The notes beneath the pieces were generated by a model that saw only the letters and a program-made list of their open reading frames with translations, ran no database searches and was not told the origin of the DNA. 64,000 nucleotides of DNA, taken from an uncultured Pseudomonadota bacterium. Lineage in GTDB: Bacteria; Babelota; Babeliae; Babelales; RVW-14. The stretch is taken from assembly GCA_964534555.1 (NCBI GenBank), contig CAZHRK010000003.1, forward strand, positions 72,627 to 136,626, read 5' to 3'. A program made the position numbers and the translations under genes. This document shows, one piece after another, positions 1 through 57,786 of the stretch (within the stretch, counting starts at the first letter, position 1; the number at the start of each line of letters is the position of its first letter).

Positions 1-105
1 CGCCCGCGTAGAGCTCCTGCAGCAGTTGGCGCACCAGCGTCTATGCCAGGTGGAGAGATTGCGCTTAAAGATGAAGCACCATTTGAAGACGATCTTCCGT
101 TCTAA
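1..105 (+). CDS. ssb: 3' end of a single-stranded DNA-binding protein gene (partial, runs off the left edge)
   Basis: Frame 1 is open from base 1 to TAA at 103-105. It ends ...EAPFEDDLPF*, the acidic DDxPF tip typical of bacterial SSB C-termini, after a Gly/Pro/Ala-rich linker. Only 34 codons are visible. Confidence 0.55.
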   Translation, partial: RPRRAPAAVGAPASMPGGEIALKDEAPFEDDLPF

Positions 106-162: not shown

Positions 163-3100
163 TTATTGTGTCGCTAGAGTTTTTGCTTGATCTGCAGAAA
201 TCAGTTTTGTTTTCTGTGCAGCATCACTAATGATTTTCTTTAACTCAGCCAGACGTTTTGTATCAACTGTTTTAATTCTTTCTATTGTTTCACTCAGGGC
301 CTTGCTTGCAATAGCCTGAGCATTCGCATCAAGTCCCTTGGCAACAGCCCATGTTGCAAGGCCTTGTGTAGCTTTAATAATATCATCAGCCGTTTGTGCT
401 CGTTTTATCTTGCTAATATTATCTGTTAGCCCTTGCATGATAACAGCAGATGTCGATACGCCTGCAGCTCTGCTTGGTTTTGCCGCACTGGTATCTATTT
501 TAACAACACGGCGGCTTACAGGACGCTGGCTTTGCTCATCAACAACTTTTGGTGCACTGCGTACTGCACTTATTGCTTGTGTTGCACTTGGGCGTGCTAG
601 CGGTTGTATCGCAGCAGTTGTTGAGGTAGCAGTTTCTTTGCTGATTACATTTTTAGTTTGAGCTGTTTTAATAACCTGCATTACAGCGTTTACTTTAGCA
701 AGGTCTCCCTGCTTTAGTTGTTTGCTGAGCGCATTAATACGCGTTTCAATTTGTGCTTTTTCTTCTGGGCTTAATGAGCTTGCATTAGGTGCATTAAGGA
801 GTTTTGTTAATGCATCGATTTCTTCCCATACAGGGTCGGTTGGTTTTTGTGGTGCTTGTTGTGCTGGGCCTGCTTTAGTAATCTCGGCTTTCATAGCTGC
901 TGCTTCACTTGCGCTGAGTGTTCCTGTCGCAACCAGTATGTCAATCGTTGCAAGAAGCTCATCGCGATCGGATGCACTTAATGTTTTTACGCTGCGAATG
1001 GTATCATTTAACGCATCCACAACTTCTTGTTTTTCTTTACCAGCAAGTGGTGCCTTGAGCTTCTGGCCCATTCCTTTTAGCAATTTTATACGACGTGATT
1101 TATTTGTCGTTTTCTTCATTTTGCTAATATTGCCTGGTGTTGGCTCTGTTTCTTCTTCTTTAATTAATCCGCCTGAACGAGGCTGATTGCCGGCTGATAA
1201 ATCATTAATATCAGTATCAGTTAACCCTGCAAGGCCTTTAGTCGTTATTATTTTTTGGCCGCGGGCTTTTTTAATAAGGCCGCCAAGGCGTTTTTTCTCT
1301 TCGATTGTTAGATCAGATTCATCTGCAATAACTGAAGCAAGAAGCTCATCAAGTGCTGCTTGTGTTGCGGCATCTGGTACTTTGCCCCCAAGCTTGTTAA
1401 TAAATGTTTCAAGAGCTGTAAGCTTGTTTTGCGGCGTTGCTGAGTCTTGTGTTTTTTTGATGTTTTCTGCTGTTGGCTCAGATGCTTGGCGTAGCGCTTC
1501 ATTAATCAACGGTGTTACTTTTGATGACAATGATACTTTTTGATCTTTGTTTAAAAGGCCTGTGTTGGTTGCTTTTTGTATGATTTCATTTAGCTCACTA
1601 AGGCTACCAGCATCAGCACCAAGATTGTCTTTAACGATTGTTTCGAGTAAGGTGCTAAAAGATTTTTGCACATCAGCGTCAATTACCCCTGTGCCTGCAC
1701 GTTTAATAAGGTCTTTGATTTTTTGTTTTTTAACAACAGGATCAGTTTCGTTATTAATATCATCAATATCAGCTTGACTAACTTTCGCTGCGGTGCCAGC
1801 TTGGCCAGAAGATTTAGCGCCCTTAGGCTTACCGCCCGTTGCAATCGCTTCATCGAGTGAGGAATCAATATCATCAATAGTTGAAGCTTTACCAGGTGGG
1901 ATGATACCAGTCTTCTTAGCTTTTTTAACGATGTTGCTTAGTGTTTTAATAGTCTCAGGATCCATGTCTTGGCCCTGAGCAGCAAGGTCAGCAAGTGCAT
2001 CTGCAAGTTCGTTTTGTTCCTCAGGAGAGAGGGCGCCGGTAGCGGCTTTATCAACAAGGGCTTGTAGCTTTTTGACCTTGTCTTTAACTGAGCCCTTAGC
2101 GTTTTTGATAGCTTTAATATTGTCTGCGGTTGGCTCAGTAGGAAGCGTATCAATCACATCAGCGTCAGCTTTAGCTTTAGTGATTTTAACTTTGATAGTT
2201 TTATTAACATACTCTTTTTGCGCATCGCTTAGCGCGCCGCTGTCATCAGCGTCTTGTAGAAGCTGCTCAAAAGCAATAAGTTCATCTTTGCTCATCTTAT
2301 CAATGTTTTTAGACATTTTATCGATCTGAGCAGCGATAGCGTTTTTAGTAGCAGCATCAAGATTTTTATCTTTAGCTTTACCGATGATATTTTTCAGAAT
2401 AGCGATTTGCTCTGTTGTTGGTGCAGCATCAGCTTTTTTGACATCGTCCTGAGCTTTTTTGTTTTCAGCAGGGGTGGCAGGAGTTGTCGGTGTTTTACCT
2501 TTAGTGCCAGCTTGGCCAGAAGATTTAGCGCCCTTAGGCTTACCACCTGTTGCAATCGCTTCATCGAGTGAGGAATCAATATCATCAATAGTTGAAGCTT
2601 TACCAGGTGGGATGATACCAGTCTTCTTAGCTTTTTTAACGATGTTGCTTAGTGTTTTAATAGTCTCAGGATCCATGTCTTGGCCCTGAGCAGCAAGGTC
2701 AGCAAGTGCATCTGCAAGTTCGTTTTGTTCCTCAGGAGAGAGGGCGCCGGTAGCGGCTTTATCAACAAGGGCTTGTAGCTTTTTGACCTTGTCTTTAACT
2801 GAGCCCTTAGCGTTTTTGATAGCTTTAATATTGTCTGCGGTTGGCTCAGTAGGAAGCGTATCAATCACATCAGCGTCAGCTTTAGCTTTAGTGATTTTAA
2901 CTTTGATAGTTTTATTAACATACTCTTTTTGCGCATCGCTTAGCGCGCCGCTGTCATCAGCGTCTTGTAGAAGCTGCTCAAAAGCAATAAGTTCATCTTT
3001 GCTCATCTTATCAATGTTTTTAGACATTTTATCGATCTGAGCAGCGATAGCGTTTTTAGTAGCAGCATCAAGATTTTTATCTTTAGCTTTACCGATGATA

Positions 3101-6100
3101 TTTTTCAGAATAGCGATTTGCTCTGTTGTTGGTGCAGCATCAGCTTTTTTGACATCGTCCTGAGCTTTTTTGTTTTCAGCAGGGGTGGCAGGAGTTGTCG
3201 GTGTTTTACCTTTAGTGCCAGCTTGGCCAGAAGATTTAGCGCCCTTAGGCTTACCACCTGTTGCAATCGCTTCATCGAGTGAGGAATCAATATCATCAAT
3301 AGTTGAAGCTTTACCAGGTGGGATGATACCAGTCTTCTTAGCTTTTTTAACGATGTTGCTTAGTGTTTTAATAGTCTCAGGATCCATGTCTTGGCCCTGA
3401 GCAGCAAGGTCAGCAAGTGCATCTGCAAGTTCGTTTTGTTCCTCAGGAGAGAGGGCGCCGGTAGCGGCTTTATCAACAAGGGCTTGTAGCTTTTTGACCT
3501 TGTCTTTAACTGAGCCCTTAGCGTTTTTGATAGCTTTAATATTGTCTGCGGTTGGCTCAGTAGGAAGCGCGGAGATATCTTCTGTTGTTACGCCTTGCTG
3601 CTGTTTACCCTTGCCACCTTTTTTGCCAGGGGAGCTTGCGCTCCCCTTTGCATCTTTAGCCTGGCTTGGTTGTTGTCCGCTATCGTTTGATGGGCTGCTT
3701 ACTTGCGGGCTGCTTTTTTGCTGGTTGGGGTTTTGATTGCTGGACTTTTTTTTTTCGCCCCCTGTTTTGGAGCCCGTCTTTGCTGTTGTTGTGTCTGTTG
3801 GCGTTGTGCTATCAGGAGCTTGCGGTTTGCTTGTGCCTGATGCTGGAGTTGTAGTTTTGCCTTTTGCTGGCTTAGCTTGTTTTTCTTGTTTTTTAGCTGC
3901 TGGCGCAGATGTTTGTTGTCCGCCTGTTGATGCTGGTGCGCTTGATCCTTTGCCTTGTGCTGCTCTTGATGGATCAAGGTCAAGCAAGATACTCTCAATT
4001 TGTTTGCTCATGCTGCCGCCCAAGCTGCTTGTTTGCGCGCTTGAGATGAATCGTATGATCTCTGCTTTGTCGCTTGCGCTTGCTGATTTACCTTTGGCAG
4101 CCATGTCTCTTAATGCTTTGATAAATGCTTCTTGATCAGCTTTGTTTGTTGAAGCTTTTCCTGCAGTACTTGTAAGCAGTGTCATTTGTGACTTGAGATC
4201 GCTTACTTGTAGAGCATTAAATATCTCTCTTTGAATCGAGCTTTCAACGATGCTGATTCCTTGGTCACTCAGCATTTGTTTAACTTGTTGCTGCTGGATT
4301 GCATTAAGAATAGATATGTTGATACATGATCTTAGGAATGTAATTACGCTATCAGAACGTTTAACAGATTTGTCTGAATCACCATACACAGCTTGTACAA
4401 GTTTGAAGAACAATCCGTACGTAATCTCATCAAAGCGCTGAGAATCAGGAATGATACGTACAATATTACGTGCTAATGAAAGTTGCTGATCACCAAATGC
4501 TGCAAGTGCATTTGAAATACGCTTATCAATATCAATAACATCGCCATACTCTGGAATTATCTGTCTTTGTGCTGCGCTGAGCAGTGGGGTGTCTTCAGCT
4601 GAGACGAGCAAAAACTCAAGGTTTGCAACTACATCAAGAGAAGAGCTTGTCAGCGAGTATGCCTCTGTTCGTGTTGCTACGAGTTGTACAACTGCATTAT
4701 AGAACAGTGTTTGCAGGCGATTGCCAACAACAACAATGTCATCAAACTCTGCCATGATATCAAGCATAGCTTCTATGCGCGCGTTGTAATCGCTAAGAGC
4801 AAGTGCTGCAAGGATCATAACTTCAACGCGTACTGTTATTGCCATTGATTTTGCATAATCTTGTTGAGCCTTGCTCAGGAGGGATGACGTGCTTGCAGCA
4901 TCAAGTACATCAAGGAGCGCTCTATTTGTATCAAGGCTTTCTCCTTCGCGAGCATCAAATGTTGCAACAAGTCCATCTCGTGCAAATAAGTTTTGAACTT
5001 CAGCAGAGAACATGACTGTCTTGGTTGCGCTTACCTGTGCAAGCGCAGCAACGTCACTTAAGATCGCGCTGAACTCTTTAAGTCGTGCGTTGTAATCAGA
5101 AATTGCAATAGCAGATCTGATGCGCGCAAGAAACTTAAGTGAGTTAATTTCGCCTTGAACTGTCGGAAGGCTTACAGACGTAATAACGCCTTTAGCTGAT
5201 TCATTTAAAAGTCCTACTTCTGCAGCATCAGCGCTATCAAGTAATGTTACAAGAATACCAAGCTGGTCAACATCTGTTTTGCTTCGTTTTGTATACACTT
5301 GATTGAGTGCAGTGTTGAAAAGACCTTGAATATTTGCAGCAACGCGCGCTGTTCTGAATGTCGTTAAGATGTCGTTCACTTCGCCAAGCTGCGATGTATA
5401 GTCTTTCATCGCTATTACAGCATTAAGTCTTCGTACGAGGCTGAGGTTTGCAAGTTCACCTTCAACCGTTGGTGTGTATGTTGTTCTAACGGCATCTTGT
5501 GATGCTGAATTAAGAAGAGGTGAGGTGCTTGCTGAGCGCAGGAGCTGGAGCAGCGCTGTAAGTTGTTTTTCATTTGTTGATTGGCGGCCAATAAAACAGC
5601 TATTCAGAACACGCATGAGCGCGCTTGATACATCGCCAACTGTTAGATCAAGATTTGACTGTGCGTATTTAATCACAATATTAAGAGCTGAGCTAATACG
5701 CGCATCAATGTTTCCAATTCTCTCAGCTGCTGCAATTTCCGCTAGTGCTGCGAGTGTAAATAACTCTTTATCAATTTGTGTTGTCCATGTTGTCATTGTT
5801 GCTTTTTGTTCAGCAGTAAACAGTGCCTTGCTTTGCGCCTTAGTGATTGTTGCTTTGATTTTTGTTAATCCATCAATCGTTTTTGTTCTGCTGTCGTATT
5901 GCTTTTTAAGCGCCTCAAAAAGGCTATTACGTGTTGCTTCGTCAACTTGGCTTGGGTCAAGGTCAAGAAGATCATCAATGCTTGCAGGGGCTCCATCTGT
6001 TCCTGTTTTGCCCGTGATGGCATCTTGAATGCGGGCTTTATTGATCTCTTTTTGTAATGTTGGAATCCAATCATCACGCATAATGTCATTTACAAAGCGT

Positions 6101-8088
6101 CCACCATCTTGAACAGCTCTTAGTTGGTTGCTTGAAAGCCAGCTTTGAATTAGATCAAGTAAGTTTTGTAGCGCGGCGGTGTTTGATGCGTCTCGACCAT
6201 TGTACATTTTCTTAAGGCCATCCCAGACATTTTTTGCTTGTTCTGCAGTTAGTGTTTGTCCTGCAACAGGGCGCGGGAAGCCATTTGGATTTTTTGGGTC
6301 TGCGCTTGCAATTTTTGTTAAGAGATCAAGTTCGCGTGCAATTTGTGGTAACCATGTGCCAACAATTGTTGCATGGTGTGTTTGAATAAGTTTGCGTGGT
6401 GTTGACCATAATTCCAGAAGTCCACGTAGGCTCGTTAGGCTATCAATTGATAACGAGTTACGTTTGTCATAACGATCTTTGAGTTGGCTGAAAACCATAT
6501 TAGAAAGCGCAACATCAGCAGGATTGTTTTGATCAAGCGCTGGATTAAATGCCGCACCAGGACCTGCATCAATATCTACAGATCCGCTTTTAACAAGCTG
6601 AAGCTTTGCAATTTCTGCATTAACAGTTGGCACCCATGTGCTGTTTATCGTGCTGTTTTGTCCTGAGGTCAGTTTGCCACTACGTGACCAGCTGGTAAGG
6701 TACGCAACAAGATCTTGGAGGAATTTAATTTTTTCATCGTTACCGGTTAGGCCAGCTACTGCAGCTGTTCTACCATTGTAACGTGCTTGTAGCAGCGCGA
6801 AAATTTGGCTTTGAAGTTGTGGCGTAAGAGGGCTTGGGGTATCCTCTGGTGCTATGTCTCCGCCTGCTCCTGTGCCGCTTCCACCTGTTGAAAGGTCATT
6901 AATCTTTTTTTCTAAAATTGTACCAGCAAGACTGTTGAGCCATGATGCAATTGTTGCGCGCTGTGTTTCTGTTAATTTTCCACCAGAGCTATTGTCATAC
7001 CAATTTTTTAGAATGTCTCGCATTGTCTCTAGCTCAGTGATCGCAAGTGTTGAGGCTGTGCTGTAGTAGTTTGACAAGCTTTGCATGATTTGTCCTTGCA
7101 GGCGCGCTTGATGGCTGACTGCTGAGGATTTACCACTGTCGTCAAGGATAGGTGATGTTGTTACAGAGACAACATCAGTGCATGAGCTAAGTTGTGCTGT
7201 GATTGAGGTTGGTACCGTCACAGAGGTTGTTGTAACTGTTGAAATAATTGGATCAATAAGCTGCTTAAGGCGCGCAAGGAAGATTCGCTGTGTTTCGTTT
7301 GGTACTGTAATGGTTGTTCTTAGCCCACCGAGTGCGCTGATTGTTGTTGCGCTTAAAATGCTTGATTCAAGATCAACAATAGCTATAAATGTTGCGAGTT
7401 GTGATTTGTATGAAGAATCAGTTACAAGTGGTGAGTTAGACGCTGTTGTAAAAATAGCTTTTACAGTAGCAAGTGATGTCAGTGTTGGAATTGTTACGGC
7501 GCCAGTCGATGTGCTACTTACTCGTTGTGCAAATACTTTAAGTAAGTTTGTGTAAAATATTTTTTTAATCGCATCTGTAAACGTTACTGTTGTCGTTGTT
7601 GTAAGGTTTCCAGCTTGTTGCAGTAGCAGTCTAATATTGCTGAGCGTTTGAGTCGTGAACCCAGATGTCCCCATGCTAAATATTTTTGTTTCAATAGAAA
7701 GCATGCTATTCATGCTTTTAATAACATTATCATAGCTACTATTGCTCGACATTGTGTCTTTTTGGATAAGAACAGCAATAATACTATTAAGGTTATCTGC
7801 AGCTGTGCTGCCTGAAGCATCACTTTCAGCGTACGCTGTTATACGGTCTGAAAAGAGCTTAGTGATGGCGCTGTAAACGCTTTCGATATCACTTCCTGCT
7901 ATTGTATCGGCAAAAGTGATCGCTTCGTTTACTTGATTCAGCCTGTCTACGTATGAGCTTGCACCCATAGCAGCGGTGATTTGACTACTCAATGATGCTG
8001 CATGCGCAGAGGAGCACCAAAACAGTGCTGCTGTCATCGCGCAGCTTATTAAGGTTTTGATTCCTGTAATACGTTTAAATAGGCTCAT
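163..8088 (-). CDS. Giant secreted alpha-helical repeat protein (about 2,640 aa), function unknown
   Basis: Uninterrupted ORF 163-8118. The ATG at 8088 (MSLFKRITGIKTLISCAMTAALFWCSSAHA...) follows GGAGACGGAGA and gives a classical signal peptide, so I prefer it to the 8118 start. Composition is Ala/Lys/Thr/Asp-rich with several internal repeat families. Confidence 0.85.
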   Translation of the reverse strand: MSLFKRITGIKTLISCAMTAALFWCSSAHAASLSSQITAAMGASSYVDRLNQVNEAITFADTIAGSDIESVYSAITKLFSDRITAYAESDASGSTAADNLNSIIAVLIQKDTMSSNSSYDNVIKSMNSMLSIETKIFSMGTSGFTTQTLSNIRLLLQQAGNLTTTTTVTFTDAIKKIFYTNLLKVFAQRVSSTSTGAVTIPTLTSLATVKAIFTTASNSPLVTDSSYKSQLATFIAIVDLESSILSATTISALGGLRTTITVPNETQRIFLARLKQLIDPIISTVTTTSVTVPTSITAQLSSCTDVVSVTTSPILDDSGKSSAVSHQARLQGQIMQSLSNYYSTASTLAITELETMRDILKNWYDNSSGGKLTETQRATIASWLNSLAGTILEKKINDLSTGGSGTGAGGDIAPEDTPSPLTPQLQSQIFALLQARYNGRTAAVAGLTGNDEKIKFLQDLVAYLTSWSRSGKLTSGQNSTINSTWVPTVNAEIAKLQLVKSGSVDIDAGPGAAFNPALDQNNPADVALSNMVFSQLKDRYDKRNSLSIDSLTSLRGLLELWSTPRKLIQTHHATIVGTWLPQIARELDLLTKIASADPKNPNGFPRPVAGQTLTAEQAKNVWDGLKKMYNGRDASNTAALQNLLDLIQSWLSSNQLRAVQDGGRFVNDIMRDDWIPTLQKEINKARIQDAITGKTGTDGAPASIDDLLDLDPSQVDEATRNSLFEALKKQYDSRTKTIDGLTKIKATITKAQSKALFTAEQKATMTTWTTQIDKELFTLAALAEIAAAERIGNIDARISSALNIVIKYAQSNLDLTVGDVSSALMRVLNSCFIGRQSTNEKQLTALLQLLRSASTSPLLNSASQDAVRTTYTPTVEGELANLSLVRRLNAVIAMKDYTSQLGEVNDILTTFRTARVAANIQGLFNTALNQVYTKRSKTDVDQLGILVTLLDSADAAEVGLLNESAKGVITSVSLPTVQGEINSLKFLARIRSAIAISDYNARLKEFSAILSDVAALAQVSATKTVMFSAEVQNLFARDGLVATFDAREGESLDTNRALLDVLDAASTSSLLSKAQQDYAKSMAITVRVEVMILAALALSDYNARIEAMLDIMAEFDDIVVVGNRLQTLFYNAVVQLVATRTEAYSLTSSSLDVVANLEFLLVSAEDTPLLSAAQRQIIPEYGDVIDIDKRISNALAAFGDQQLSLARNIVRIIPDSQRFDEITYGLFFKLVQAVYGDSDKSVKRSDSVITFLRSCINISILNAIQQQQVKQMLSDQGISIVESSIQREIFNALQVSDLKSQMTLLTSTAGKASTNKADQEAFIKALRDMAAKGKSASASDKAEIIRFISSAQTSSLGGSMSKQIESILLDLDPSRAAQGKGSSAPASTGGQQTSAPAAKKQEKQAKPAKGKTTTPASGTSKPQAPDSTTPTDTTTAKTGSKTGGEKKKSSNQNPNQQKSSPQVSSPSNDSGQQPSQAKDAKGSASSPGKKGGKGKQQQGVTTEDISALPTEPTADNIKAIKNAKGSVKDKVKKLQALVDKAATGALSPEEQNELADALADLAAQGQDMDPETIKTLSNIVKKAKKTGIIPPGKASTIDDIDSSLDEAIATGGKPKGAKSSGQAGTKGKTPTTPATPAENKKAQDDVKKADAAPTTEQIAILKNIIGKAKDKNLDAATKNAIAAQIDKMSKNIDKMSKDELIAFEQLLQDADDSGALSDAQKEYVNKTIKVKITKAKADADVIDTLPTEPTADNIKAIKNAKGSVKDKVKKLQALVDKAATGALSPEEQNELADALADLAAQGQDMDPETIKTLSNIVKKAKKTGIIPPGKASTIDDIDSSLDEAIATGGKPKGAKSSGQAGTKGKTPTTPATPAENKKAQDDVKKADAAPTTEQIAILKNIIGKAKDKNLDAATKNAIAAQIDKMSKNIDKMSKDELIAFEQLLQDADDSGALSDAQKEYVNKTIKVKITKAKADADVIDTLPTEPTADNIKAIKNAKGSVKDKVKKLQALVDKAATGALSPEEQNELADALADLAAQGQDMDPETIKTLSNIVKKAKKTGIIPPGKASTIDDIDSSLDEAIATGGKPKGAKSSGQAGTAAKVSQADIDDINNETDPVVKKQKIKDLIKRAGTGVIDADVQKSFSTLLETIVKDNLGADAGSLSELNEIIQKATNTGLLNKDQKVSLSSKVTPLINEALRQASEPTAENIKKTQDSATPQNKLTALETFINKLGGKVPDAATQAALDELLASVIADESDLTIEEKKRLGGLIKKARGQKIITTKGLAGLTDTDINDLSAGNQPRSGGLIKEEETEPTPGNISKMKKTTNKSRRIKLLKGMGQKLKAPLAGKEKQEVVDALNDTIRSVKTLSASDRDELLATIDILVATGTLSASEAAAMKAEITKAGPAQQAPQKPTDPVWEEIDALTKLLNAPNASSLSPEEKAQIETRINALSKQLKQGDLAKVNAVMQVIKTAQTKNVISKETATSTTAAIQPLARPSATQAISAVRSAPKVVDEQSQRPVSRRVVKIDTSAAKPSRAAGVSTSAVIMQGLTDNISKIKRAQTADDIIKATQGLATWAVAKGLDANAQAIASKALSETIERIKTVDTKRLAELKKIISDAAQKTKLISADQAKTLATQ
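1793..3569 (-). repeat. 2.5 copies of a near-identical 711-bp in-frame tandem repeat (237 aa per unit) inside the giant gene
   Basis: The anchor gtgccagcttggccagaag occurs at 1793 and 2504, an offset of 711. The right boundary ggaagcg ends at 2858 and 3569. Antisense ORFs in the track repeat identically at 711-bp offsets (1683/2394/3105 and 2072/2783/3494). Confidence 0.95.
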
Positions 8089-8225
8089 TCTCCGTCTCCT
8101 CGGGGCTGAAAACGTCATTATTTAAGATCCAATAAATAGTTACAGAGTGTACGCCTTATGATCAAGAGTTATAAAAGCTCATTTGTTGCACACGCGTACA
8201 CGATGACCTACCCTAGACAAAAAGT

Positions 8226-8239
8226 TTGATGCGCATCAA
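8226..8239. promoter_or_regulatory. Perfect 14-bp palindrome TTGATGCGCATCAA upstream of the nitroreductase gene (candidate operator)
   Basis: Read directly from the sequence. It ends 27 nt before the ATG at 8267, inside the divergent intergenic region. Confidence 0.3.
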
Positions 8240-8266
8240 GACATTAGAAAGTATGAAAGGTAAGTT

Positions 8267-8842: not shown

Positions 8843-10306
8843 GTGAAAATAGCGCTTGTATTGCCGCACCAACTTTTTGAGAAAAGTGAGATTTTAAACG
8901 GTGCTGAAAAAGCAGTTATCGTTGAGCACCCGCATTTTTTTACAGCATTTAAGTATCATAAACAGAAGCTTGTTCTTCACAGGGCGAGCATGCAGTGGTA
9001 CGCAGATTTACTTATCTCTAAGGGTATTTTTGTTGACTATGTTCCGTTTTCAACGCCTTTAGCTGATGCATTTAAACTTATCTCCGACGATGCTGGTCAT
9101 ATGGAAATTGTCATGTATGACCCAATAGAAAAAGCTGTTATTAAAGATATAAAAGCACTTGCTGCAAAGTATAAATGCGAGCTTACGATAGTAGACACCC
9201 CTATGCTTATGACTGAGCGGGCTACGCTTGAAAAGACTTTTGCACAGAAAAAGTCCTACCGCATGGCTGCATTTTATCAGCAGCAGCGTAAACGATTTGG
9301 TATTTTACTTACTAATCATGGAGATCCCGTTGGTGGCAAATGGTCATTTGATGAAGATAATCGTAGTGCGCTACCTAAGGGTATTACGATTCCGCCACTA
9401 CAAATGCCTGATACTACAGCATATGTTAAAAGCGCATTAGCGTATGTTGATAAATATTTTTCAAGCAATCCTGGTGCTGCAGAAAGCTTTATGTATCCAA
9501 TCTCTCATGATGAAGCTCGTGCTGTGCTTAAAGAATTTGTGCATAAACGACTAGCACATTTCGGCCCATATCAGGATGCAATGTCTGCAACGCAGCCGTT
9601 TATTTTCCATTCGCTTCTTTCATCAAGTTTGAATAATGGATTGATCACGCCTCACGAGGTTGTCCAGGATGTATTAGATTATGCCGCACGCAACCATGTT
9701 TCACTGTCATCTGTAGAGGGTTTTGTCAGACAAGTCATTGGATGGCGTGAATTTGTCGCTGGGTTGTATATGACTCATGATGATACAATGCGTTCAAAAA
9801 ACTTTTGGGCGCACACAAAAAAACTGGCATCTGCCTGGTATACGGCTAAAACAGGATTGCTTCCAGTTGATATTGTGATTAAACGCGTTATGAAGTACGC
9901 TTACGCCCACCATATCGAGCGATTAATGGTACTTGGTAATGCTATGCTGCTGTGTCAAACAGATCCAAACGATGTTTATCGCTGGTTTATGGAGCTTTTT
10001 ATAGATGCATATGATTGGGTTATGGTTCCAAATGTTTATGGAATGAGTCAGTTTGCTGACGGCGGAATGCTTGCAAGCAAGCCTTATATTTCGGGTTCAA
10101 ACTATATTAATAAAATGTCTGATTTTGCAGCTGGAGAGTGGGAAGATACGTGGAATGCGCTTTATTGGCATTTTATCGATAAACATAAAGACTACTTTGC
10201 AAAAAATCAGCGTGCATCATTCACCGTGACGACTTTAAATAGAATGAATCCTGAAAAAAGAAATTTATATGCAAAACGAGCTGAGGCTTTTCTTAAAAGT
10301 CTCTAG
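8843..10306 (+). CDS. Cryptochrome/photolyase-related protein (COG3046-like family)
   Basis: The C-terminal block HHIERLMVLGNAMLL...FIDAYDWVMVPNVYGMSQFADGG...KPYISGSNYINKMSDF is collinear with the photolyase-related (FeS-BCP/CryB-type) family. GTG start lies 4 nt after the nitroreductase stop. Confidence 0.75.
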   Translation: MKIALVLPHQLFEKSEILNGAEKAVIVEHPHFFTAFKYHKQKLVLHRASMQWYADLLISKGIFVDYVPFSTPLADAFKLISDDAGHMEIVMYDPIEKAVIKDIKALAAKYKCELTIVDTPMLMTERATLEKTFAQKKSYRMAAFYQQQRKRFGILLTNHGDPVGGKWSFDEDNRSALPKGITIPPLQMPDTTAYVKSALAYVDKYFSSNPGAAESFMYPISHDEARAVLKEFVHKRLAHFGPYQDAMSATQPFIFHSLLSSSLNNGLITPHEVVQDVLDYAARNHVSLSSVEGFVRQVIGWREFVAGLYMTHDDTMRSKNFWAHTKKLASAWYTAKTGLLPVDIVIKRVMKYAYAHHIERLMVLGNAMLLCQTDPNDVYRWFMELFIDAYDWVMVPNVYGMSQFADGGMLASKPYISGSNYINKMSDFAAGEWEDTWNALYWHFIDKHKDYFAKNQRASFTVTTLNRMNPEKRNLYAKRAEAFLKSL

Positions 10307-20615: not shown

Positions 20616-21698
20616 TTAAAGACCAGCAGCTGCAAGGTGTGCAAGATGCGCTGACGCGCGTGCTGATTTATCAGGGTCTTCTGTTTGCGCTTGAAGTACT
20701 AGAAGGTGTGCCTTCAGCTCGTCAATTATTTCATCGTCTACATGGAGTGTAATGTAGTTTCCGACTGTTTCTGCAGTCAAAGAAACTCTTATTTTACCTG
20801 TTGTAATGTGCATCGGGTCTTGTTTGAGTGCTTTTTGAAATGCTGCATGATAAATAGTTGGACGGAAATCTTTTGCAACATCACCGCTCATAGCGATTGT
20901 AAAAACCTTACCATCTCTAAATGATCGTGCAATTGCACCAGTTGTTGGCATAACTACTGAACCATCGCTCTCAATAAGTTGGCGATCAATCGGTGCTGTA
21001 ACACGAACGCAGAAGGTAAAAGTGCCATCTTTACGAATATCAAGGCCAAAGCTTGGTAGAACTGACGGGTATAAGAAGGCTGTTTTAAGAGATTCATTTG
21101 AGCAGAGGTGGTCGCATACATTGTTTTGAGCTATATGGTTAGGAGCAACCTCTCCTCGTTTAGCTCTTTCAGCTCTATCTTCTGTAATAAAACGAATAAT
21201 GTTTACAGGGCTACGATCATTAACGCGTGCATGCAAGTCGAAAATGATTGTGTCATTATTTATAAAATTCGAAACAGGATCACCAGAAAACAGCTCAGGT
21301 GCAAATCTAAATGGCCACTGAGCAAGCGCTCTAGTTTTTGTTGTTGAGTGTACAATTCCTCTGCCCCCAGGTGTTGCTTGAAGGTTGTTGGTATGACTGT
21401 CTGGGCGCTCCGGAGTGTGGTAGTGTACAACTTTAGCTGATCGCGGTGGGGTGCTAGCAGGTGCAGCACTTATAGAAGGTGATAAAACTTTTGTTGTTGG
21501 GGCACCAAGCGCAGCAAGGACATCATCTGGAATTAAAGAATCTGCTCGAGGCGATGCGCTAGCACCGGCGCCACCTCTTAGTGGTGATGCTGTATGCTCT
21601 GAAACTGATGATCTGCGTGTTCTGGGTGGAGTTGCTGTTGATGCAGCATTACTATCAAGTACAGCGGCAACTGTTATGAGTATGAGTGTTTTCAGCAT
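20616..21698 (-). CDS. Secreted protein, paralog A (disordered Pro/Ser/Arg-rich N-region plus a conserved domain of about 250 aa), unknown function
   Basis: The ATG at 21698 follows AGGAAATCAC and gives the signal peptide MLKTLILITVAAVLDSNA. It shares ATPGGRGIVH and TIYHAAFQK blocks with the next gene. The ORF maximum is 21746. Confidence 0.75.
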   Translation of the reverse strand: MLKTLILITVAAVLDSNAASTATPPRTRRSSVSEHTASPLRGGAGASASPRADSLIPDDVLAALGAPTTKVLSPSISAAPASTPPRSAKVVHYHTPERPDSHTNNLQATPGGRGIVHSTTKTRALAQWPFRFAPELFSGDPVSNFINNDTIIFDLHARVNDRSPVNIIRFITEDRAERAKRGEVAPNHIAQNNVCDHLCSNESLKTAFLYPSVLPSFGLDIRKDGTFTFCVRVTAPIDRQLIESDGSVVMPTTGAIARSFRDGKVFTIAMSGDVAKDFRPTIYHAAFQKALKQDPMHITTGKIRVSLTAETVGNYITLHVDDEIIDELKAHLLVLQAQTEDPDKSARASAHLAHLAAAGL

Positions 21699-21758
21699 GT
21701 GATTTCCTATAAGGGCTTGTAATTTTATTTCGATTTTAATGAGCATGGGGCGAGTATT

Positions 21759-22829
21759 TTAGGCTGTAATCAGCGTATCGATAACAGCCGAAAGCTCAAC
21801 TGCATCAGCATATTCTTGATGTGAAGAGTCGGCAGCGATTACATCGACTCGTGCTTTTAGATCGGCCAGAGCAGAAGCACCAACAGTGTATGTAATTTTC
21901 TTGTAGGATGATCCATCTGGATTGTTGGCATCAACTGCAGAAAGGTTAATATCCTTTGTTTCAATCTCAAATGTCCATGCCCCAAATGATTTTTGAAATG
22001 CTGCATGATAAATAGTAGACAATTCACAGCTAGGAACCGCTTCAGATCGTACTGCAATAGTAAAAAGCTCTGATTTACTAAATGAGTTTCCAATTTTGCC
22101 GCCAGGCGTACGTGTTGCAGGGTCTCCAATTTTTACGACTGCTTCACGATTTATAGTTGCTGTAATGCGGATATACGTGAAAATATTGCCGGTCTTATGA
22201 TCTTTTTTTATACCAAAGGCGATTTTGCGTGATGGGTATATTACAGCAGCTTTTAAAAGTTGCTGTGAGCATATATGGTCATAAATATCTGATGATGCAT
22301 AAAATGGGTCTTTATTTTTGCTTTGGGGTGTCAGACCGCTTTTACGGCGATCATTTGCAATCATAGCGACTATTTTATCGCTAAGATTGTTTTCAACACG
22401 CTTTGCAAGATCAAAAACAACATCTTTGTTCATAATAAAGCTCGTATTAGCGCCGTCTTCAAAAAGCTCTTCATCCCATGCATAGCATTGATCACTAAGC
22501 GTTGATGTTTTTTGGATTATATGGATAATTGAGCGACCACCAGGTGTTGCTTTATGAGGGATAGTAGCTTTTTCATCGCGCATAGGCGTGCGCTTTGTTG
22601 GCGCCTCTTCGGCTGCTTTTATGTTTTGATGGGTTGGTGTTCCATACTTGCTTGGGCTGCCGAGTATTCTGCGTAACGGTGTTTCTTCTCTCGGACGAGT
22701 TGAGCGTGCTGGGCTTGCATAAGAAGCATCAGTAGTACCAGCGTTTTCAGTTTCAGGCTTTACGCTTGGGCTTTCTGCCCCAAAAAGCGGAGTAAAAACA
22801 AGAGTCATTATAAGAAGAGGAATATGCAT
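21759..22829 (-). CDS. Secreted protein, paralog B of the 20616 gene, unknown function
   Basis: Signal peptide MHIPLLIMTLVFTPLFGAES from the ATG at 22829 (ORF maximum 22871, GTG). Collinear with paralog A: ATPGGRSIIH, DHICS vs DHLCS, TIYHAAFQK. Confidence 0.75.
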   Translation of the reverse strand: MHIPLLIMTLVFTPLFGAESPSVKPETENAGTTDASYASPARSTRPREETPLRRILGSPSKYGTPTHQNIKAAEEAPTKRTPMRDEKATIPHKATPGGRSIIHIIQKTSTLSDQCYAWDEELFEDGANTSFIMNKDVVFDLAKRVENNLSDKIVAMIANDRRKSGLTPQSKNKDPFYASSDIYDHICSQQLLKAAVIYPSRKIAFGIKKDHKTGNIFTYIRITATINREAVVKIGDPATRTPGGKIGNSFSKSELFTIAVRSEAVPSCELSTIYHAAFQKSFGAWTFEIETKDINLSAVDANNPDGSSYKKITYTVGASALADLKARVDVIAADSSHQEYADAVELSAVIDTLITA

Positions 22830-22942
22830 TGCTAATAAGCCTTTCGTAAGACAATCTTTAAAGTGCCCCACTGAGCCTGAGAAAAGCTTGAGGGGGGCAC
22901 CATTATAGAGATTCTATCGATATTAGCAACCGTTACCAGGCC

Positions 22943-25900
22943 TTAGAACAGGTCTTTTAGCTTAGAAACAAGGCTTTTTGATGCTTTAATTAAAAGATCA
23001 TCTAAATCGTTAACATTTGCTTCGATTCTAATAGAAAAGTCTTTGCCACCAATAACACCTTCAATTATTGATATTGGCATTTTGCCTTGGACAACCGCCT
23101 TAAGGCTTTCAATTTCTATTCGAATTTTATTGATAGTGAAGACGTTTACTGCTCGCAGGCCAAAATCAAGGACTTTTGAGCTTACGCCAGTTGCTTTTTC
23201 TGCTGCATACAAGCTACCTTTTGCCAGCGTTAGAGCCGCGTCAGCTGTTTTTTGTGCTGCTATCAGAGCGGCTAGCTCAGCACGCTCATCAGCTGTTGTT
23301 TTATCAAGGACTTCTTTTTGTACAACCTTGCCTGCAGATTTGCCTGTATCAACCACCGAGTCAACGGCATCTTTGCCTGTATCAACCACTGAATCAAGGG
23401 TGTTTTTGCCTGTATCAACAACAGAGCTACCGATACTTTTTGCTTTATCTACTACTTTATTAAAAACGCCCCATGCATAGAGTTTATGTGGTTTTTGATT
23501 TGTCAAAAGTGTATCTAAATCAAATCGAGCATCAGTATTAGTTGCTATTTTACGTCTGAGTTCTGCTATACGTACGTCAAGCCTATCAAGATCCTTCTGA
23601 GCGCTTTCAACTTTTGATCGAGCGTCTCGAATAGATGCCCCAGCTTGATCAAGCTCACCGCGTATTTGTTTTCTGAAGCGCTCAATAAATGCTGCATCAA
23701 ATCCTGATGCGATTTCTCCTGATAATCTGAAGTCTATATTTTTAACACGCGCTACATCGTCAATACTATCCATTTCAGTTGGAAGGTTGACCGCAGATCC
23801 CTCAAATGTTGCTCTAAAAGGACCAAACAACGTGCGCACGGTTTTGAAGCTAAGCTTGTCCCCGCTAAAGAAAAGATCTGTTTGGCTTACAGATCCCAGA
23901 AGTTCTGCAAGCCCAGTGAAGGTGATGATTTGTCTGTCTTTGGTTAGTGTTAGTTCAAATGCTGCGCCATCATCATCTGTTCCGTATTTTTGATCAAGCC
24001 CCGCGCCGGTTAATTTGAGAGGCCCAATATCTATTTTCGGAATTGTTCCATTCATACTAAAGCCGCTGTCACTTACAACTATTTGTGCTTTACCATCTCC
24101 CACAAATGGCAGTGCAACAAGAGCATTCATTCTTAATCCAGGCGCAAGCACTGGTTTCTTTAATGATGTACCTTTGAGCCCAACAGTAAATTCAGCTGCT
24201 TTAATCCCCATGTTCGGTAATCTTAACGTTGGCATATCAAGGCCCGATTTTGTGGCAAATGCAATTACATCTTTAAGCGTTAGTCTCTCCGCGCGCATTG
24301 ATGTGTAGAGCAGAAAGCCTTCTTTGCTTAGTTTTACATCTGTTTGGCTTGAAACTCCAAATAGCTGTACCAACCCAGACATAAGAAAGCGTTGTTCTTC
24401 TTTTGTTAATTTAATATCAACAATCGCTCCATCATCAGCTGTTCCATATGCGCCGTCTTCTCCCATGCCTGTTATAAGCACTGGGCCGCACTCTATTTTG
24501 CTTAATTTACCTTTTGCGCTAATTCCATTATCGCGCACGAGTAGTTCTACAAGAGCAAATTCATCAAGCACCTGGACTTTACCTTTCATGGTAATCCCAG
24601 GATCGAGTCTGAAGGTTTTGAATTTTTCACCCTTCATACCAACGGTGTATTCAACATCGCTTAATCCAAGGTCGGGTAGTGCATCAGGTGGTAGCGTGAG
24701 TCCTGTTTTGTTTGCAGCAGCAATAATGTCTTTTAAATTAATGCGATCAATTTTGAGCGATGATAAGAATTCAAAGCCTTCTTTTCCTAGGTACACTTCT
24801 GTTTGTGCTGAGCTTCCAAATATTTTAATTAACCCCGAAATTAAGACATGCTGCTTTGTTGGCGTAAGCGCAAAACTAACAACTGGTCCATCATCAGGTG
24901 TGCCGTATGTTTTATCTAACCCTTTTCCTGTTATCAGTACTGGGCCTAGCTCTAGTTGGGATATTGTGCCCTCTGCTATTATGCCGCCTATATCAACATT
25001 AACGTTAATAGTTGCTTTTTCATCAAGTACTTCCATAGAGCCTTTGAACGTTAGGCCTGGGTCGAATTGAATCTCTCCAATCGATCCACCAGTTGGTGCA
25101 AATTTTACTTCAACATCATGAAAGCCAAAGTTTGGAACTTTTTCTATTGCGATATTTGCGCCTGCGCTTCTTGCAAGGCTTGCAAGGTCAGATAAGAAAA
25201 GTCGGTTGATACTGCCATACATAATCAGGTCTTGAAGATTTGCAGTGACCAGCGTTCCTACGCGTGCTTTGATATCACCTACTTGTACAGCGCCAGTAAG
25301 ACCGAATTTAGTCGGTAAACCAGTAGCAGAGAAGACCGCGTAGTCTATACCAGCTTCTACCGCCACATCAGATATAGCAAAGCCTTTGATGCCCATAGGG
25401 TTGTGCCAATCTCCCTTCATTGTGCCTGAGAGCGATGCGCTATCTGGCTCAACTTTTACTCGGCCATAGAGTCCCAGGGGCTCGTCTTTATCAGATGGGA
25501 TAACAGTGATTTTTGTTATGAGAGAGAGCTTCGGGCCACTTCCGTCAAATTCAAAAATGAGGTTATCAAGTGTTGCCTTTTTACCCAGGCGTACTTGCGC
25601 AGGGATATTTGCTTGAAGCTTAAGGTCTCTGATGCTCCTGCCAACCGACATAACGGTATAAACTTCTTTAGGTGCATCAGGGACTAAATTGCTTACACCA
25701 GCAAAGACACCACCGGTTGTAGGCATTTTTAGGACAATTGAGACGCCCTGAGGGATATCAATTTTTAATGCTGGGTCGGTGTAGGCTTTTGATGCAGCGA
25801 TGATACTTGCGCGTGAGAAGTCGATTTTATCAATATCTGTTCCTGCTGCATCAGGAATAGAGTCAGATACTTTCCAGCCAGCTTTAATACCGCCCTTAAG

Positions 25901-53257: not shown

Positions 53258-54979
53258 ATGTTGATACTATCTCTTGTAATTAATTTCCTATTAAGTACTT
53301 CTCTGTATGCTGCCGCGGCATCCTCACATGATTTGCCACATGTTTTATCTACAGAAGCAGCCGATGCAATAGCAAAATTCTATTGTGTTGAACCAAGCGC
53401 AAAAAGAATAGCACGAGATATTTTGTTGCGAGCGACAAAACGCGATCGAGATGATTTAGTCCTTGAGTTAGATGAAGATGCAAAAAGAGTTGCATATAGT
53501 TTATATCAACAAGCATTAGCTCGGGGTGATGTACGGGTTGTAGATTTGGTTAGTCATAGCCTACCAGAGCTTCTTGATCGGCCGATTTCAGCAAGATCAG
53601 CCTATTCTGATTTGCATTTAAACATGAGGCGCTTTCCTAAGAGACTTAGAAATGAGCTATCTGGTCGTGATGATAATCTTGCTGCTGAAGTTATAGATGA
53701 TTATGTTGGCCTTAGTTTGCCAAAGCGAGTTATGAATTTTTCTAAAGAAGAAATTCTTGGCGCCTCAATAGAAAGGCTTGAAGAAATTATTGAAGTATTT
53801 GAATGTTATGCAACTCAAGAAGAGCAGCTTGTATTTAGAGATCCGATTATAACAAGGTTGACTGAATTTCTCTATGCGGCGCTTGATGCAAAAGATTACG
53901 ATACTGTTATTTTATTATTAGACTCGTATTATCTTTATTATAAAACGATTGATTTTGATGCTAAACACAACCTCTTTTTTATTGCGATTGCTAACTCAAT
54001 AGCGTTATTTAAAAAAATTGTAGATCTTGATTTAGATGATCCAGGATTTATCAATAAATTTTCTGCTAACCCTTTTCACAATAGATTATCACCTGAATTT
54101 AGTGTTGATGCTATGAAAGTACTCATTGATGCCTATGGAGTAAGAAGTCTAATTCAACCATTAGTCGTAAAAAAAGCACATCATTCCCCTCAAGCGCGTC
54201 AGATTTATCCATTCATGATTGCTCTAGCATATGGTGATGTTCCACTTTTAAAATTTCTACTCAGTGTAAAAAACCCAGAAACAGACCTTTATGTGCACTA
54301 TGAAGAATTATTATTAGATAAAATTCCACTTATGTGGCATGCAGATGATGCTGAAATAATTTTAGACTGCAGCCTTCCAAGGCCGCATGGCTGTGATCCT
54401 GAGATTATTCTTCATGGGACAACTATTTTCCATTGGTTGGCATGCTCACAAATTGCTCCAGAGGTTTTTATAAAATTTTTGACTGGATTATCTAGATCAG
54501 ATCTTGCCTCTGGTCCCGTTGACCCTATCGCACCTGAAAAAATTATGGAGTGTCTAGATCTATTGCTCAAACATTTACGGTCACCAATAAGAATAATCTA
54601 CAACACAGCTCTTATTGAACCACTTGAGTTTGCACTAGCATCAAAAAATTATGCTACGGCAAAAATGCTTATTACCGCGGGCATGGTCAGTGAGATTAAT
54701 AGAGCTTCATTCGCTATGAGTTTATTTAAAGAAGGCCAAGTAGAGCTTGCACGACTCTTGATCCCAAGCATCACAGCTGAGTCTATTGAAAGATATGAAG
54801 CGATGGAGGCTGCTTCATATGCAGCTCGTAGAAGCGTCGTTCCAGTAGCTAATGCATCAGAAGCGGAGTATGAAACATTACCACGCTCTCACAGCCTTCG
54901 AAACCCTGGAACAACTCGTCGCGGTAGACTACCTGCTTCTGGCAAGGAATCAACTAGAAAAATTATTCCACTGCGATAA
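53258..54979 (+). CDS. Ankyrin-repeat-like protein with a signal peptide (paralog 2)
   Basis: The ATG at 53258 after AAGG gives MLILSLVINFLLSTSLYAAAAS (track start is a TTG at 53219). It is collinear with the 51281 gene. The 3' end overlaps the lpxI stop convergently by 17 nt. Confidence 0.65.
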   Translation: MLILSLVINFLLSTSLYAAAASSHDLPHVLSTEAADAIAKFYCVEPSAKRIARDILLRATKRDRDDLVLELDEDAKRVAYSLYQQALARGDVRVVDLVSHSLPELLDRPISARSAYSDLHLNMRRFPKRLRNELSGRDDNLAAEVIDDYVGLSLPKRVMNFSKEEILGASIERLEEIIEVFECYATQEEQLVFRDPIITRLTEFLYAALDAKDYDTVILLLDSYYLYYKTIDFDAKHNLFFIAIANSIALFKKIVDLDLDDPGFINKFSANPFHNRLSPEFSVDAMKVLIDAYGVRSLIQPLVVKKAHHSPQARQIYPFMIALAYGDVPLLKFLLSVKNPETDLYVHYEELLLDKIPLMWHADDAEIILDCSLPRPHGCDPEIILHGTTIFHWLACSQIAPEVFIKFLTGLSRSDLASGPVDPIAPEKIMECLDLLLKHLRSPIRIIYNTALIEPLEFALASKNYATAKMLITAGMVSEINRASFAMSLFKEGQVELARLLIPSITAESIERYEAMEAASYAARRSVVPVANASEAEYETLPRSHSLRNPGTTRRGRLPASGKESTRKIIPLR

Positions 54980-55769
54980 GACAGATATTCAGCTCCTGGG
55001 CTTTTTGTTTGAAAAGCTCAAGATCATTAATGAGTGTTGTGTGGGCTTCCCACGCAATTGCCTTGACGTCACCAGCTTGTAGCACTGCAAGTGTTGCAGG
55101 CCCTAGAGTAGGAAGATCATATTTTCGATTGTGATCTTTAAACGCTGTTTTGCATAAAATAACGCCGCCTTGTGCAAGTGCAATTGCCCGTTGCAAGCAA
55201 GCATCAGTTCCCTCTATTGCCTCTGCTGCTATGACCATGCAATCTTTAACAACAACTGTTTGGCCAATATCAGCCGCAGAAATCTCACGGGCTTTTTGCA
55301 GACCAAAAAAGATACTTTTTTTATCTTCCTCAGAAAGTTCACCACAAATAATTCCCGGCTTACAAAAAAGCCCACCAAGCACCTCGTCTTGCTGCAAGAC
55401 GCTAAACCCTTGGTCCTCTAAAAAATTTATAGCTCCTTGCATGATGTCGCGATCACCTTTAAACGTTAATTTTGCAAAAAAGCTAAGTGCCATGCTGTCA
55501 AAACTAATATGTTTTAACAAAGCTCCTTTATCAACTTTACCTATAAAAAAAAGTTTGTTACAGCCACGGCTTTTCACCGCGGCAATAATTGAGCTTGGTT
55601 TATAATAGGGCTTTTGTAAAACTTCGGCATGGCCATCGCACACAGCGGCAAGTGCCTGACCATTATTTTCTGGAAATAACGATACAACCATAAAGCTTGT
55701 ATTTTGTTCAATAAGTGTGCTGCATGCGCGCAGCGGAAGTTGGCCAGTACCTGCTATAAGAGCAATCAT
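54963..55769 (-). CDS. lpxI: UDP-2,3-diacylglucosamine pyrophosphatase LpxI (DUF1009 family)
   Basis: N-terminus MIALIAGTGQLPL and the C-terminal block KYDLPTLGPATLAVLQAGDVKAIAWEA are typical of LpxI. It lies in a lipid A gene context. Confidence 0.75.
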   Translation of the reverse strand: MIALIAGTGQLPLRACSTLIEQNTSFMVVSLFPENNGQALAAVCDGHAEVLQKPYYKPSSIIAAVKSRGCNKLFFIGKVDKGALLKHISFDSMALSFFAKLTFKGDRDIMQGAINFLEDQGFSVLQQDEVLGGLFCKPGIICGELSEEDKKSIFFGLQKAREISAADIGQTVVVKDCMVIAAEAIEGTDACLQRAIALAQGGVILCKTAFKDHNRKYDLPTLGPATLAVLQAGDVKAIAWEAHTTLINDLELFKQKAQELNICLIAVE

Positions 55770-57645: not shown

Positions 57646-57689
57646 ATTTTTTTGTGCAGATAAATTTTCCAAGATGTGAACTCCGATGC

Positions 57690-57764
57690 TGGCTGGGGCG
57701 GAAGGATTCGAACCTACGCATGGCGGAACCAAAACCCGCTGCCTTACCACTTGGCGACGCCCCA
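57690..57764 (-). tRNA. tRNA-Gln (anticodon UUG), encoded CCA
   Basis: The minus strand reads TGGGGCGTCGCCAAGTGGTAAGGCAGCGGGTTTTGGTTCCGC...GGTTCGAATCCTTCCGCCCCAGCCA. The anticodon loop is TTTTGGT. Confidence 0.9.
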
Positions 57765-57786
57765 ATTGCATTTCACGAGAGGTATA

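Follow-up and report, generated by a model that had tools for sequence, protein, structure and literature searches.

What is a protein of more than 2,600 residues, encoded by about 8 kb of DNA in an uncultured, host-dependent bacterium, and where does it act? The question is raised by a stretch of 64,000 nucleotides (the window; positions 72,627 to 136,626 of the forward strand of contig CAZHRK010000003.1, assembly GCA_964534555.1), whose left end carries a single giant open reading frame (ORF). An earlier note, made from the sequence alone, had described the product as a secreted protein built from at least three families of helical modules, called A, B and C. We find that these modules are diverged copies of one superfamily module, and that the proteins containing it form a fast-diverging family whose position is conserved and whose C-terminal modules have been amplified lineage by lineage. 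Both the family and the repeat module are new; the general type, a giant exported protein rich in repeats from a host-dependent bacterium, is a familiar one.

One module repeated along the protein

The ORF list and translation give a single frame of 2,651 codons from the first ATG, at the coordinates given in the earlier note. It lies on the minus strand, with its stop codon at 163–165, so that 'family C' at 163–3569 is C-terminal and the signal peptide is at the 8.1-kb end. The true start is likely to be a second ATG at 8088, which has a GGAG 8 nt upstream and gives a product of 2,641 residues; the protein-database entry P0001 (2,641 residues) begins at the same methionine. Residues are numbered below from the first ATG. 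From Met 8088 the N-terminus reads MSLFKRITGIK, then TLISCAMTAALFWCSS, then AHA with the cut before the next A, then SL. Inspection of this segment reveals the basic n-region, 16-residue hydrophobic core and AXA cleavage site of the classical signal peptide described earlier, and it is probably a Sec-type signal peptide and a substrate of signal peptidase I. The layout of the gene is as follows.

163 to 8118, minus strand: giant ORF (ORF list and translation; intact syntenic orthologues; strain variants 9 synonymous and 6 non-synonymous)
7999 to 8088, minus strand: likely start and probable Sec-type signal peptide, residues 11–40, MSLFKRITGIKTLISCAMTAALFWCSSAHA with A following the cut (read directly)
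7159 to 7998, minus strand: N-terminal Ser/Thr-rich modules, residues 41–320, degenerate copies of the module (copy in the iterated hidden Markov model, HMM, at residues 165–259)
5740 to 7155, minus strand: five Trp-containing B modules, residues 322–793 (self-BLAST, HMM)
3982 to 5730, minus strand: A (DY-type) modules and best-conserved core of the family, residues 797–1379 (HMM copies at 808–1206 and 1309–1387)
3568 to 3981, minus strand: low-complexity Ser/Lys/Thr/Gln/Pro/Gly linker, residues 1380–1517, net basic (composition and charge scans)
1788 to 3574, minus strand: tandem array in which a unit of 711 bp (237 residues; two C modules and a linker) is repeated about 2.5 times at 99–100% identity
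166 to 1779, minus strand: five further diverged Lys/Ala-rich C modules, residues 2114–2651 (HMM copies)

The motifs reported for A, B and C all occur at the places given for them, and all five B units are confirmed. The B units share the motif F..L...Y..R ... L..W ... (T)W.P.I..E(I/L), are separated by Pro/Gly-rich linkers and correspond to HMM copies at residues 321–408, 416–510, 521–604, 608–699 and 711–793. The A motifs DYTSQL, DYNARL and DYNARI stand at residues 906, 1008 and 1110 (DNA ∼5403, 5097 and 4791), and EPT..NIK recurs at residues 1521, 1758, 1995, 2214 and 2325. Past the array, C copies are found at residues 2131–2214, 2233–2310, 2344–2417, 2434–2516 and 2581–2651. The terminal module (residues ∼2565–2651, DNA 166–426) has counterparts at the C-termini of homologues when compared by eye, and the stretch before it is basic (net +7 over residues 2501–2600 in the charge profile).

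Self-BLAST of the protein in chunks gave internal matches within residues 363–752 and within 838–1152, and aligned residues 465–510 with 851–896 at 39% identity. A self-iterated profile converged on 21 copies of a single module of ∼85 columns, which extend from residue 165 to the last residue and cover 67% of the protein. Self-iteration can inflate scores, and a control model was therefore built from the four clearest B units alone. With this model, A units reached 27.7, 16.5 and 6.6 bits and C units reached 7.0 bits, against a top score of 1.9 bits on 50 locally shuffled copies of the protein. Pairwise comparison with hhalign, using alignments from the window only, matched B to A with 94.9% probability (E 4e-8), A to C with 66.9% (E 5e-5) and B to C with 59.8% (E 9e-5), in each case in register; the tie of the Ser/Thr-rich N-terminal units is weak (A to N, E 0.007). 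The common motif is approximately (D)Y..QL..L…G / …Q.(L)F..AL…(F/Y)..R / …L..L..LL..A..S /.LL(S/T)..Q…, followed by a long last helix, and can be condensed for the ∼100-residue unit to DY..QL / Q.LF..AL...F..R / L..LL..A..S.LL / ..QQ. Because the iterated HMM, hhalign and a common four-helix pattern agree, A, B and C are to be counted as one superfamily, and the earlier division into at least three families falls. Paralogues were also sought within the window, where the module profile matches no other ORF (best E 0.095).

The 711-bp units are present as three in-register copies with 99–100% identity, as first described. In a period-711 scan the match extends from 1788 to ∼3574 and is broken inside by just two mismatches, and chunked self-BLAST places the near-identical 237-residue units between residues 1515 and 2113. 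Short-read unitigs from the source runs are interrupted at the array, and their depth relative to the flanks is ∼2.1–2.3-fold for a 355-nt piece and ∼1.7–2.0-fold for a 416-nt piece. Such depths are evidence for two or more units in the array; they do not fix the exact copy number.

The modules are all-α in both structural models that we computed. An AlphaFold2 model of the core (residues 825–1345, 521 residues), based on an alignment of nine collinear homologue cores, has a mean predicted local distance difference test score (pLDDT) of 87.9 and a predicted template-modelling score (pTM) of 0.69. Four helices of ∼14, 16, 14 and 24–32 residues recur in it per ∼100 residues, and the long last helix continues almost straight into the next module. 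A model of a single C module (residues 1517–1625; alignment of 41 other module copies) has a pLDDT of 87.2 and a pTM of 0.78 and consists of a short helix and then four, so that the C modules share the architecture of the A modules. An elongated rod or solenoid is suggested by the secondary-structure pattern, by a pTM that is fairly high for a span of five modules and by the kind of weak fold neighbours described below. The description of the protein as purely helical can be kept for the modules; it does not extend to three low-complexity linkers (residues 1380–1517, 1611–1669 and 1848–1906), which are probably disordered or flexible. Similarly, the protein is Lys/Ala-rich in its C-terminal half only, to which that richness is confined, and not as a whole (A 12.7%, S 9.4%, T 9.2%, L 9.2%, K 9.1%).

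Comparison with known repeat proteins

Searches of the giant protein against Pfam and NCBIfam returned nothing above cut-off, and Pfam searches of three homologues gave sub-threshold noise only. A profile of the core found nothing below E 0.09 among PDB sequences. Foldseek searches of the PDB gave no match at E ≤ 1e-3 for the core model (best 7.6e-3, TM score 0.21–0.26), the weak neighbours being Rpn-type proteasome proteins, CAND1, karyopherins and designed helical repeats (DHR), and none for the single C module (best E 0.098), which aligned with the Rtt103 CID domain and designed repeat proteins at non-significant TM scores of 0.5–0.62. By these criteria the protein appears to have no recognisable enzymatic domain and to belong to no named family. 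The earlier note had recognised no enzymatic motif and could name no family, and sensitive profile and structure searches leave both statements standing, since they assign the modules to no described repeat family.

Individual candidates were considered and rejected on more specific grounds. For the spectrin repeat (PF00435) there is no Pfam match at E ≤ 1 in the whole protein and none in the three homologues, and for each of the two models the 50 best Foldseek matches listed contain no spectrin structure. The resemblance to spectrin lies in an all-α repeat of ∼100–106 residues whose long last helix runs into the next module; the difference is that spectrin has three helices of ∼30 residues per ∼106-residue unit, whereas the models give four to five helices per module, with four of ∼14, 16, 14 and 24–32 residues. 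Among FIVAR, GA and FIMAH, only FIMAH gave a match, and that below threshold (E 0.059; 14.4 bits, cut-off 24.8). Gram-positive sorting is contradicted by the lack of a YSIRK signal, LPXTG motif or C-terminal membrane anchor and by the lipopolysaccharide (LPS) and outer-membrane genes of the organism. For a type V autotransporter there is no Pfam match, and the C-terminal 70 residues fit the helical module profile. An RTX or type I adhesin would be expected to look otherwise: the GG.G.D motif is absent, whereas a signal-like N-terminus is present. A lipoprotein was rejected because an L-I-S-C string precedes, rather than follows, the hydrophobic core and the signal regions of P0002 and P0003 lack Cys. 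In general, no RTX, LPXTG or additional transmembrane features were found in the giant protein, and no hydrophobic segment besides the signal peptide rises convincingly above the level of that peptide. Relatives in giant viruses were sought in BFVD, which gave no match at E ≤ 1e-3.

The nearest structural neighbours, none of them significant, are α-α solenoids (HEAT/ARM-like proteins, Rtt103 CID, MA3 and designed repeats). They differ from the giant protein in having a 40-residue hairpin rather than a ∼100-residue unit and give no sequence-profile match; for the HEAT/ARM/TPR class there is no Pfam match, and Foldseek reaches no better than E 0.0076 with TM up to 0.26 for the core, or E 0.098 with TM up to 0.62 for the module. 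The models may put the protein in this broad class of architecture and do not make it a member of any of its families. Ebh and Embp of Gram-positive cocci are exported proteins of several hundred kDa to the megadalton range with tandem all-α modules of ∼100–130 residues. The giant protein resembles these FIVAR-GA proteins in its many tandem all-α modules, lack of an enzymatic domain and variable repeat number. It differs in that its host is a diderm with LPS genes and in that its module has four to five short helices, whereas that of Ebh has two three-helix bundles.

Giant ORFs of other symbionts or predators with reduced genomes, such as the Omnitrophota Velamenicoccia, for which roles as coats or in cell–cell adhesion have been proposed (PMC10066038), are likewise very large, poorly annotated, poorly conserved and found in host-dependent bacteria. 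They differ in exceeding 20 kb and in often having many transmembrane helices or β-type adhesin domains. The searches revealed no homologue among them; the 16 relatives of the giant protein are without exception hypothetical proteins, and those that could be placed lie in loci of Babeliales-like appearance. Literature searches for a described giant protein in Dependentiae gave only the Omnitrophota paper, and no Dependentiae adhesin or coat protein is described in the literature searched.

The family, its organisms and its loci

An exhaustive HMMER search of 1.84 billion representative proteins with residues 1–1200 as the query found 16 relatives (E 4e-117 to 3e-6), nine of them 2,100–2,950 residues long when the full-length cluster member P0022 is counted. 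All are metagenomic and either nameless or annotated as 'hypothetical protein'. A scan of contigs from 185,579 species representatives with the N-terminal 1,333 residues found no relative, and a word-indexed protein search with the whole protein found only the protein itself. Within the family (P0002 to P0017) we found the collinear core of ∼500 residues, the N-terminal signal, many modules and the syntenic position. The core is collinear with nine homologues at 22–30% identity, a hydrophobic signal-like start is present in every homologue that includes its N-terminus, and full-length members have 16–26 module copies, or 19–26 if longer than 2,400 residues. The N-terminal Ser/Thr-rich region is collinear with the N-terminus of P0005. 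P0002 carries many B-type units in tandem and is located elsewhere, outside the common gene order.

The host of the window was placed by LepA. Named relatives 75–81% identical, among the 120 best matches, come nearly all from Candidatus Babeliales, Dependentiae or candidate division TM6, and the closest matches of all are 82–89% identical; this protein assigns the organism to Babeliales/Dependentiae. LepA is 82–83% identical to that of the window in the genomes that appear to carry P0011 and P0009, a tentative pairing. Judged from the sequences recovered, the family appears to be specific to a Babeliales clade.

Three relatives, P0011, P0009 and P0006 (contigs L082, L083 and L084), are syntenic with the giant gene of the window and can be regarded, from gene order, as its positional orthologues; they are intact and 2,847–2,938 residues long. 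The common order is M16 peptidase, GT9, (OEP), thymidylate synthase, a hypothetical protein of ∼220 residues, one or two variable genes, the giant gene and a convergent ssb, past which lies lpxB in the orthologous loci. The giant protein is only 22–35% identical between the window and these loci, against 33–75% for its neighbours (OEP ∼34%, hyp208 ∼40%, GT9 46–50%, M16 ∼52%, DPRP 53%, DHFR 63%, ThyA 75%). Each lineage has recent C-terminal duplicates of its own: 2.5 units of 237 residues in the window, many units of ∼105–130 residues in P0011, three units in P0022 and three larger units each in P0003 and P0004. The C-terminal module is found again in members across the family, as is a basic stretch or tail close to the end. 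Four bioreactor metagenome runs, all from one study, contain the giant gene with a word identity of 100%, and a 95–99% identical strain was found at low depth in a wastewater metagenome of a different study (run X5). Contigs from public runs differ from the window at 15 sites, nine of them synonymous, which fits a translated gene under purifying selection, the sample being small.

Two flanking features bound the gene.

118 to 163, no strand: bidirectional intrinsic terminator, a GC-rich palindromic hairpin with A and T runs on either side
8119 to 8266, no strand: intergenic region of 148 bp separating the giant gene from the divergent nitroreductase gene, presumed to be a promoter region

At positions 1–103 (plus strand) a convergent gene comes to its 3′ end in …EDDLPF*, a string that resembles the acidic tail typical of single-stranded DNA-binding protein (SSB); the convergent downstream gene in the orthologous loci encodes SSB. 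The giant gene and this ssb-like gene use the terminator at 118–163 in common. A scan of 8119–8266 found no consensus σ70 match. On the divergent side the window has the nitroreductase and DPRP genes where two lineages carry a gene for a tectonin-domain protein (β-propeller lectin-like; L083 6781–7821, L084 6805–7785) as the upstream neighbour of the giant gene. The photolyase-related DPRP gene (8843–10306, plus strand) has its best relatives among species representatives at 42–48% identity, scattered over Bacteroidota, Planctomycetota, Verrucomicrobiota, Acidobacteriota and TM6, a spread that does not place the organism, and a Babeliales orthologue on L082 at 53%. L084 has a nucleotidyltransferase/HEPN pair (toxin–antitoxin-like) at 90–807, inserted in an otherwise syntenic stretch.

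The genes nearby include diderm LPS and peptidoglycan genes (LpxA, LpxI, a GT9 heptosyltransferase, OEP, a MurE-like ligase and FtsW). LpxI (54963–55769, minus strand) matches in both domains, indicating that the lipid A pathway uses LpxI, and adjoins a GFO/IDH/MocA oxidoreductase and LpxA. The LpxA-like ORF (56848–57771, minus strand) overruns a tRNA-Gln gene on the same strand (57690–57764); because of this overlap, the true start of LpxA should lie downstream of the first start codon of the ORF. The neighbourhood also contains an ankyrin gene and many genes for orphan signal-peptide proteins, and ankyrin, F-box-LRR and tectonin genes lie near giant genes in the window or related contigs. 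Six orphan ORFs have no Pfam match (22943–27553, 20616–22871 and 60967–62187 on the minus strand; 46629–49088, 28076–29467 and 53219–54979 on the plus strand). They include products of 1,536 and 819 residues, most have hydrophobic signal-like N-termini and none matches the profile of the giant module. A 187-residue ORF (41018–41581, minus strand) has a sub-threshold match to Pfam Effector_1, a family of type III secretion effectors (E 9.5e-4; 18.8 bits, cut-off 23.8).

Elsewhere in the window, a three-domain ATP-dependent DNA ligase (DNA_ligase_A_N/M/C; 36873–38657, plus strand) adjoins plsY and a tRNA-Met gene; ligases of this type are common in archaea, eukaryotes and viruses. The dnaA gene (62322–63752, minus strand) is near the right end of the window, and the cumulative GC skew climbs steadily to ∼54 kb and is then flat or falling; a replication origin may therefore lie nearby. 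Rfam matches in the window are limited to three tRNAs.

Location and function of the giant protein

The earlier note had suggested a putative role as a surface-layer, fibril or host-interaction protein. Our preferred reading, which we hold to be possible rather than probable, is that the giant protein is a surface-exposed or secreted, non-enzymatic protein of the host interface, an adhesin or a coat. We favor it because a signal peptide, great length, turnover of repeat number and rapid divergence are together the usual signature of such proteins, because the organisms are obligate parasites of protists and because type II secretion system (T2SS) genes with two secretins are common in the phylum. 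Published work describes Dependentiae as obligate intracellular parasites of protists and treats their signal-peptide proteins as secreted (PMC6561590, PMC4378268); the TM6 genomes studied share T2SS components, with two copies of gspD (PMC4776705). In such a scheme the protein would be exported by Sec and its signal peptide cleaved, leaving ∼2,600 residues in which some two dozen all-α modules of ∼85–105 residues would fold, each with four helices and sometimes a short fifth. Stacked or strung together, the modules would form a long helical-repeat rod interrupted by the three flexible linkers. The N-terminal two thirds (N, B, A and core) would be a positionally conserved shaft, and the Lys-rich C-terminal modules are the part amplified independently in each lineage. 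The protein would then leave the cell, probably through the T2SS, and act where parasite meets host, serving the infectious cell as a fibrous adhesin or a coat; its basic C-terminal part would bind a surface of negative charge, which could be the bacterial envelope or that of the host.

Several points weigh against an adhesin or coat. Export past the periplasm, the rod shape, the surface location and the function itself are steps that we infer, and the rod shape is drawn from secondary structure, pTM and weak fold neighbours. A Sec signal by itself takes a protein of a Gram-negative bacterium only as far as the periplasm, a substrate of ∼280 kDa would be unusually large for a T2SS and the known fibrillar adhesins of Gram-negative bacteria are mostly β-rich. 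In the loci read, the genes beside it do not consistently include one for secretion, anchoring or modification, and fast divergence is also expected of any weakly constrained repeat protein.

The main rival, which we judge somewhat unlikely, is that the protein is exported by Sec and stays in the periplasm, where it would give the small coccoid infectious cell a structural matrix or a skeleton for its envelope. The Sec signal is the only sorting signal, with no β-barrel, RTX motif, LPXTG motif or family-conserved lipobox and no linked secretion gene, and the basic C-terminal region could bind peptidoglycan or membrane. Envelope genes surround the locus (GT9 heptosyltransferase and OEP in the window, lpxB in the orthologous loci), and electron-dense periplasmic material has been described in a related Dependentiae isolate (PMC6561590). 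However, housekeeping parts of an envelope show rapid divergence and lineage-specific amplification less typically than exposed proteins do, the family occurs in few lineages (17 representatives) and the isolate with the dense layer is not known to carry it. If the protein instead passes beyond the bacterium altogether, it could be an effector or scaffold in the host vacuole or cytoplasm whose helical modules form a binding platform, for example one that tethers organelles or membranes. Helical repeats are classic protein-binding surfaces, and the weak fold neighbours (CID, MA3, 14-3-3 and HEAT-like) are of this sort; Dependentiae signal-peptide proteins, ankyrin proteins among them, are assumed to be delivered to the host (PMC4378268, PMC6561590), and eukaryote-like domains are encoded beside the giant gene in related contigs. 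We nevertheless consider a host effector unlikely: the protein itself has no recognisable domain of eukaryote-like type and no recognisable short motif for host targeting, passage of ∼280 kDa across a further host membrane is hard to picture and there is no evidence of a dedicated translocation system.

It is very improbable that there is nothing to explain, that is, that the long ORF and its array are a misassembly or a decaying, unexpressed gene. The break of the unitigs at the array and depths that are not exactly those of 3:2 copies would agree with this. Against it, the flanking 1.7-kb and 4.9-kb parts of the gene were assembled identically in three independent runs, the strain from the other study differs mainly at synonymous sites and several lineages have intact syntenic orthologues of similar length. 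By our own estimate (∼5% stops per codon at 42% GC), an open frame of 2,651 codons would arise by chance with a probability of ∼1e-59.

An adhesin or coat could have a wider meaning, in a form that we regard as doubtful. The ∼100-residue four-helix repeat would then define, besides a new module, a new class of diderm surface fibre: an all-α rod of tens of nanometres, exported by Sec and the T2SS, from which the infectious stage of a Babeliales clade would build its coat (or its electron-dense envelope layer) and whose rapidly turning-over, Lys-rich C-terminal modules would decide which protist the cell attaches to and enters. If true, this would be a helical analogue of the Gram-positive adhesins of the Ebh/M-protein type in a Gram-negative parasite of protists. 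A mundane role, such as that of a periplasmic filler, would still leave a new family, of local interest only. The catalogue of protein modules also gains a confidently modelled and hitherto unnamed helical repeat. Dependentiae parasitize protists, are widespread and have almost entirely escaped cultivation, and the giant protein is a concrete candidate for host contact or envelope function in one Babeliales clade, because it takes up ∼8 kb of a probably small genome, has positional orthologues, outpaces its neighbours in divergence and has had its C-terminus re-amplified in each lineage.

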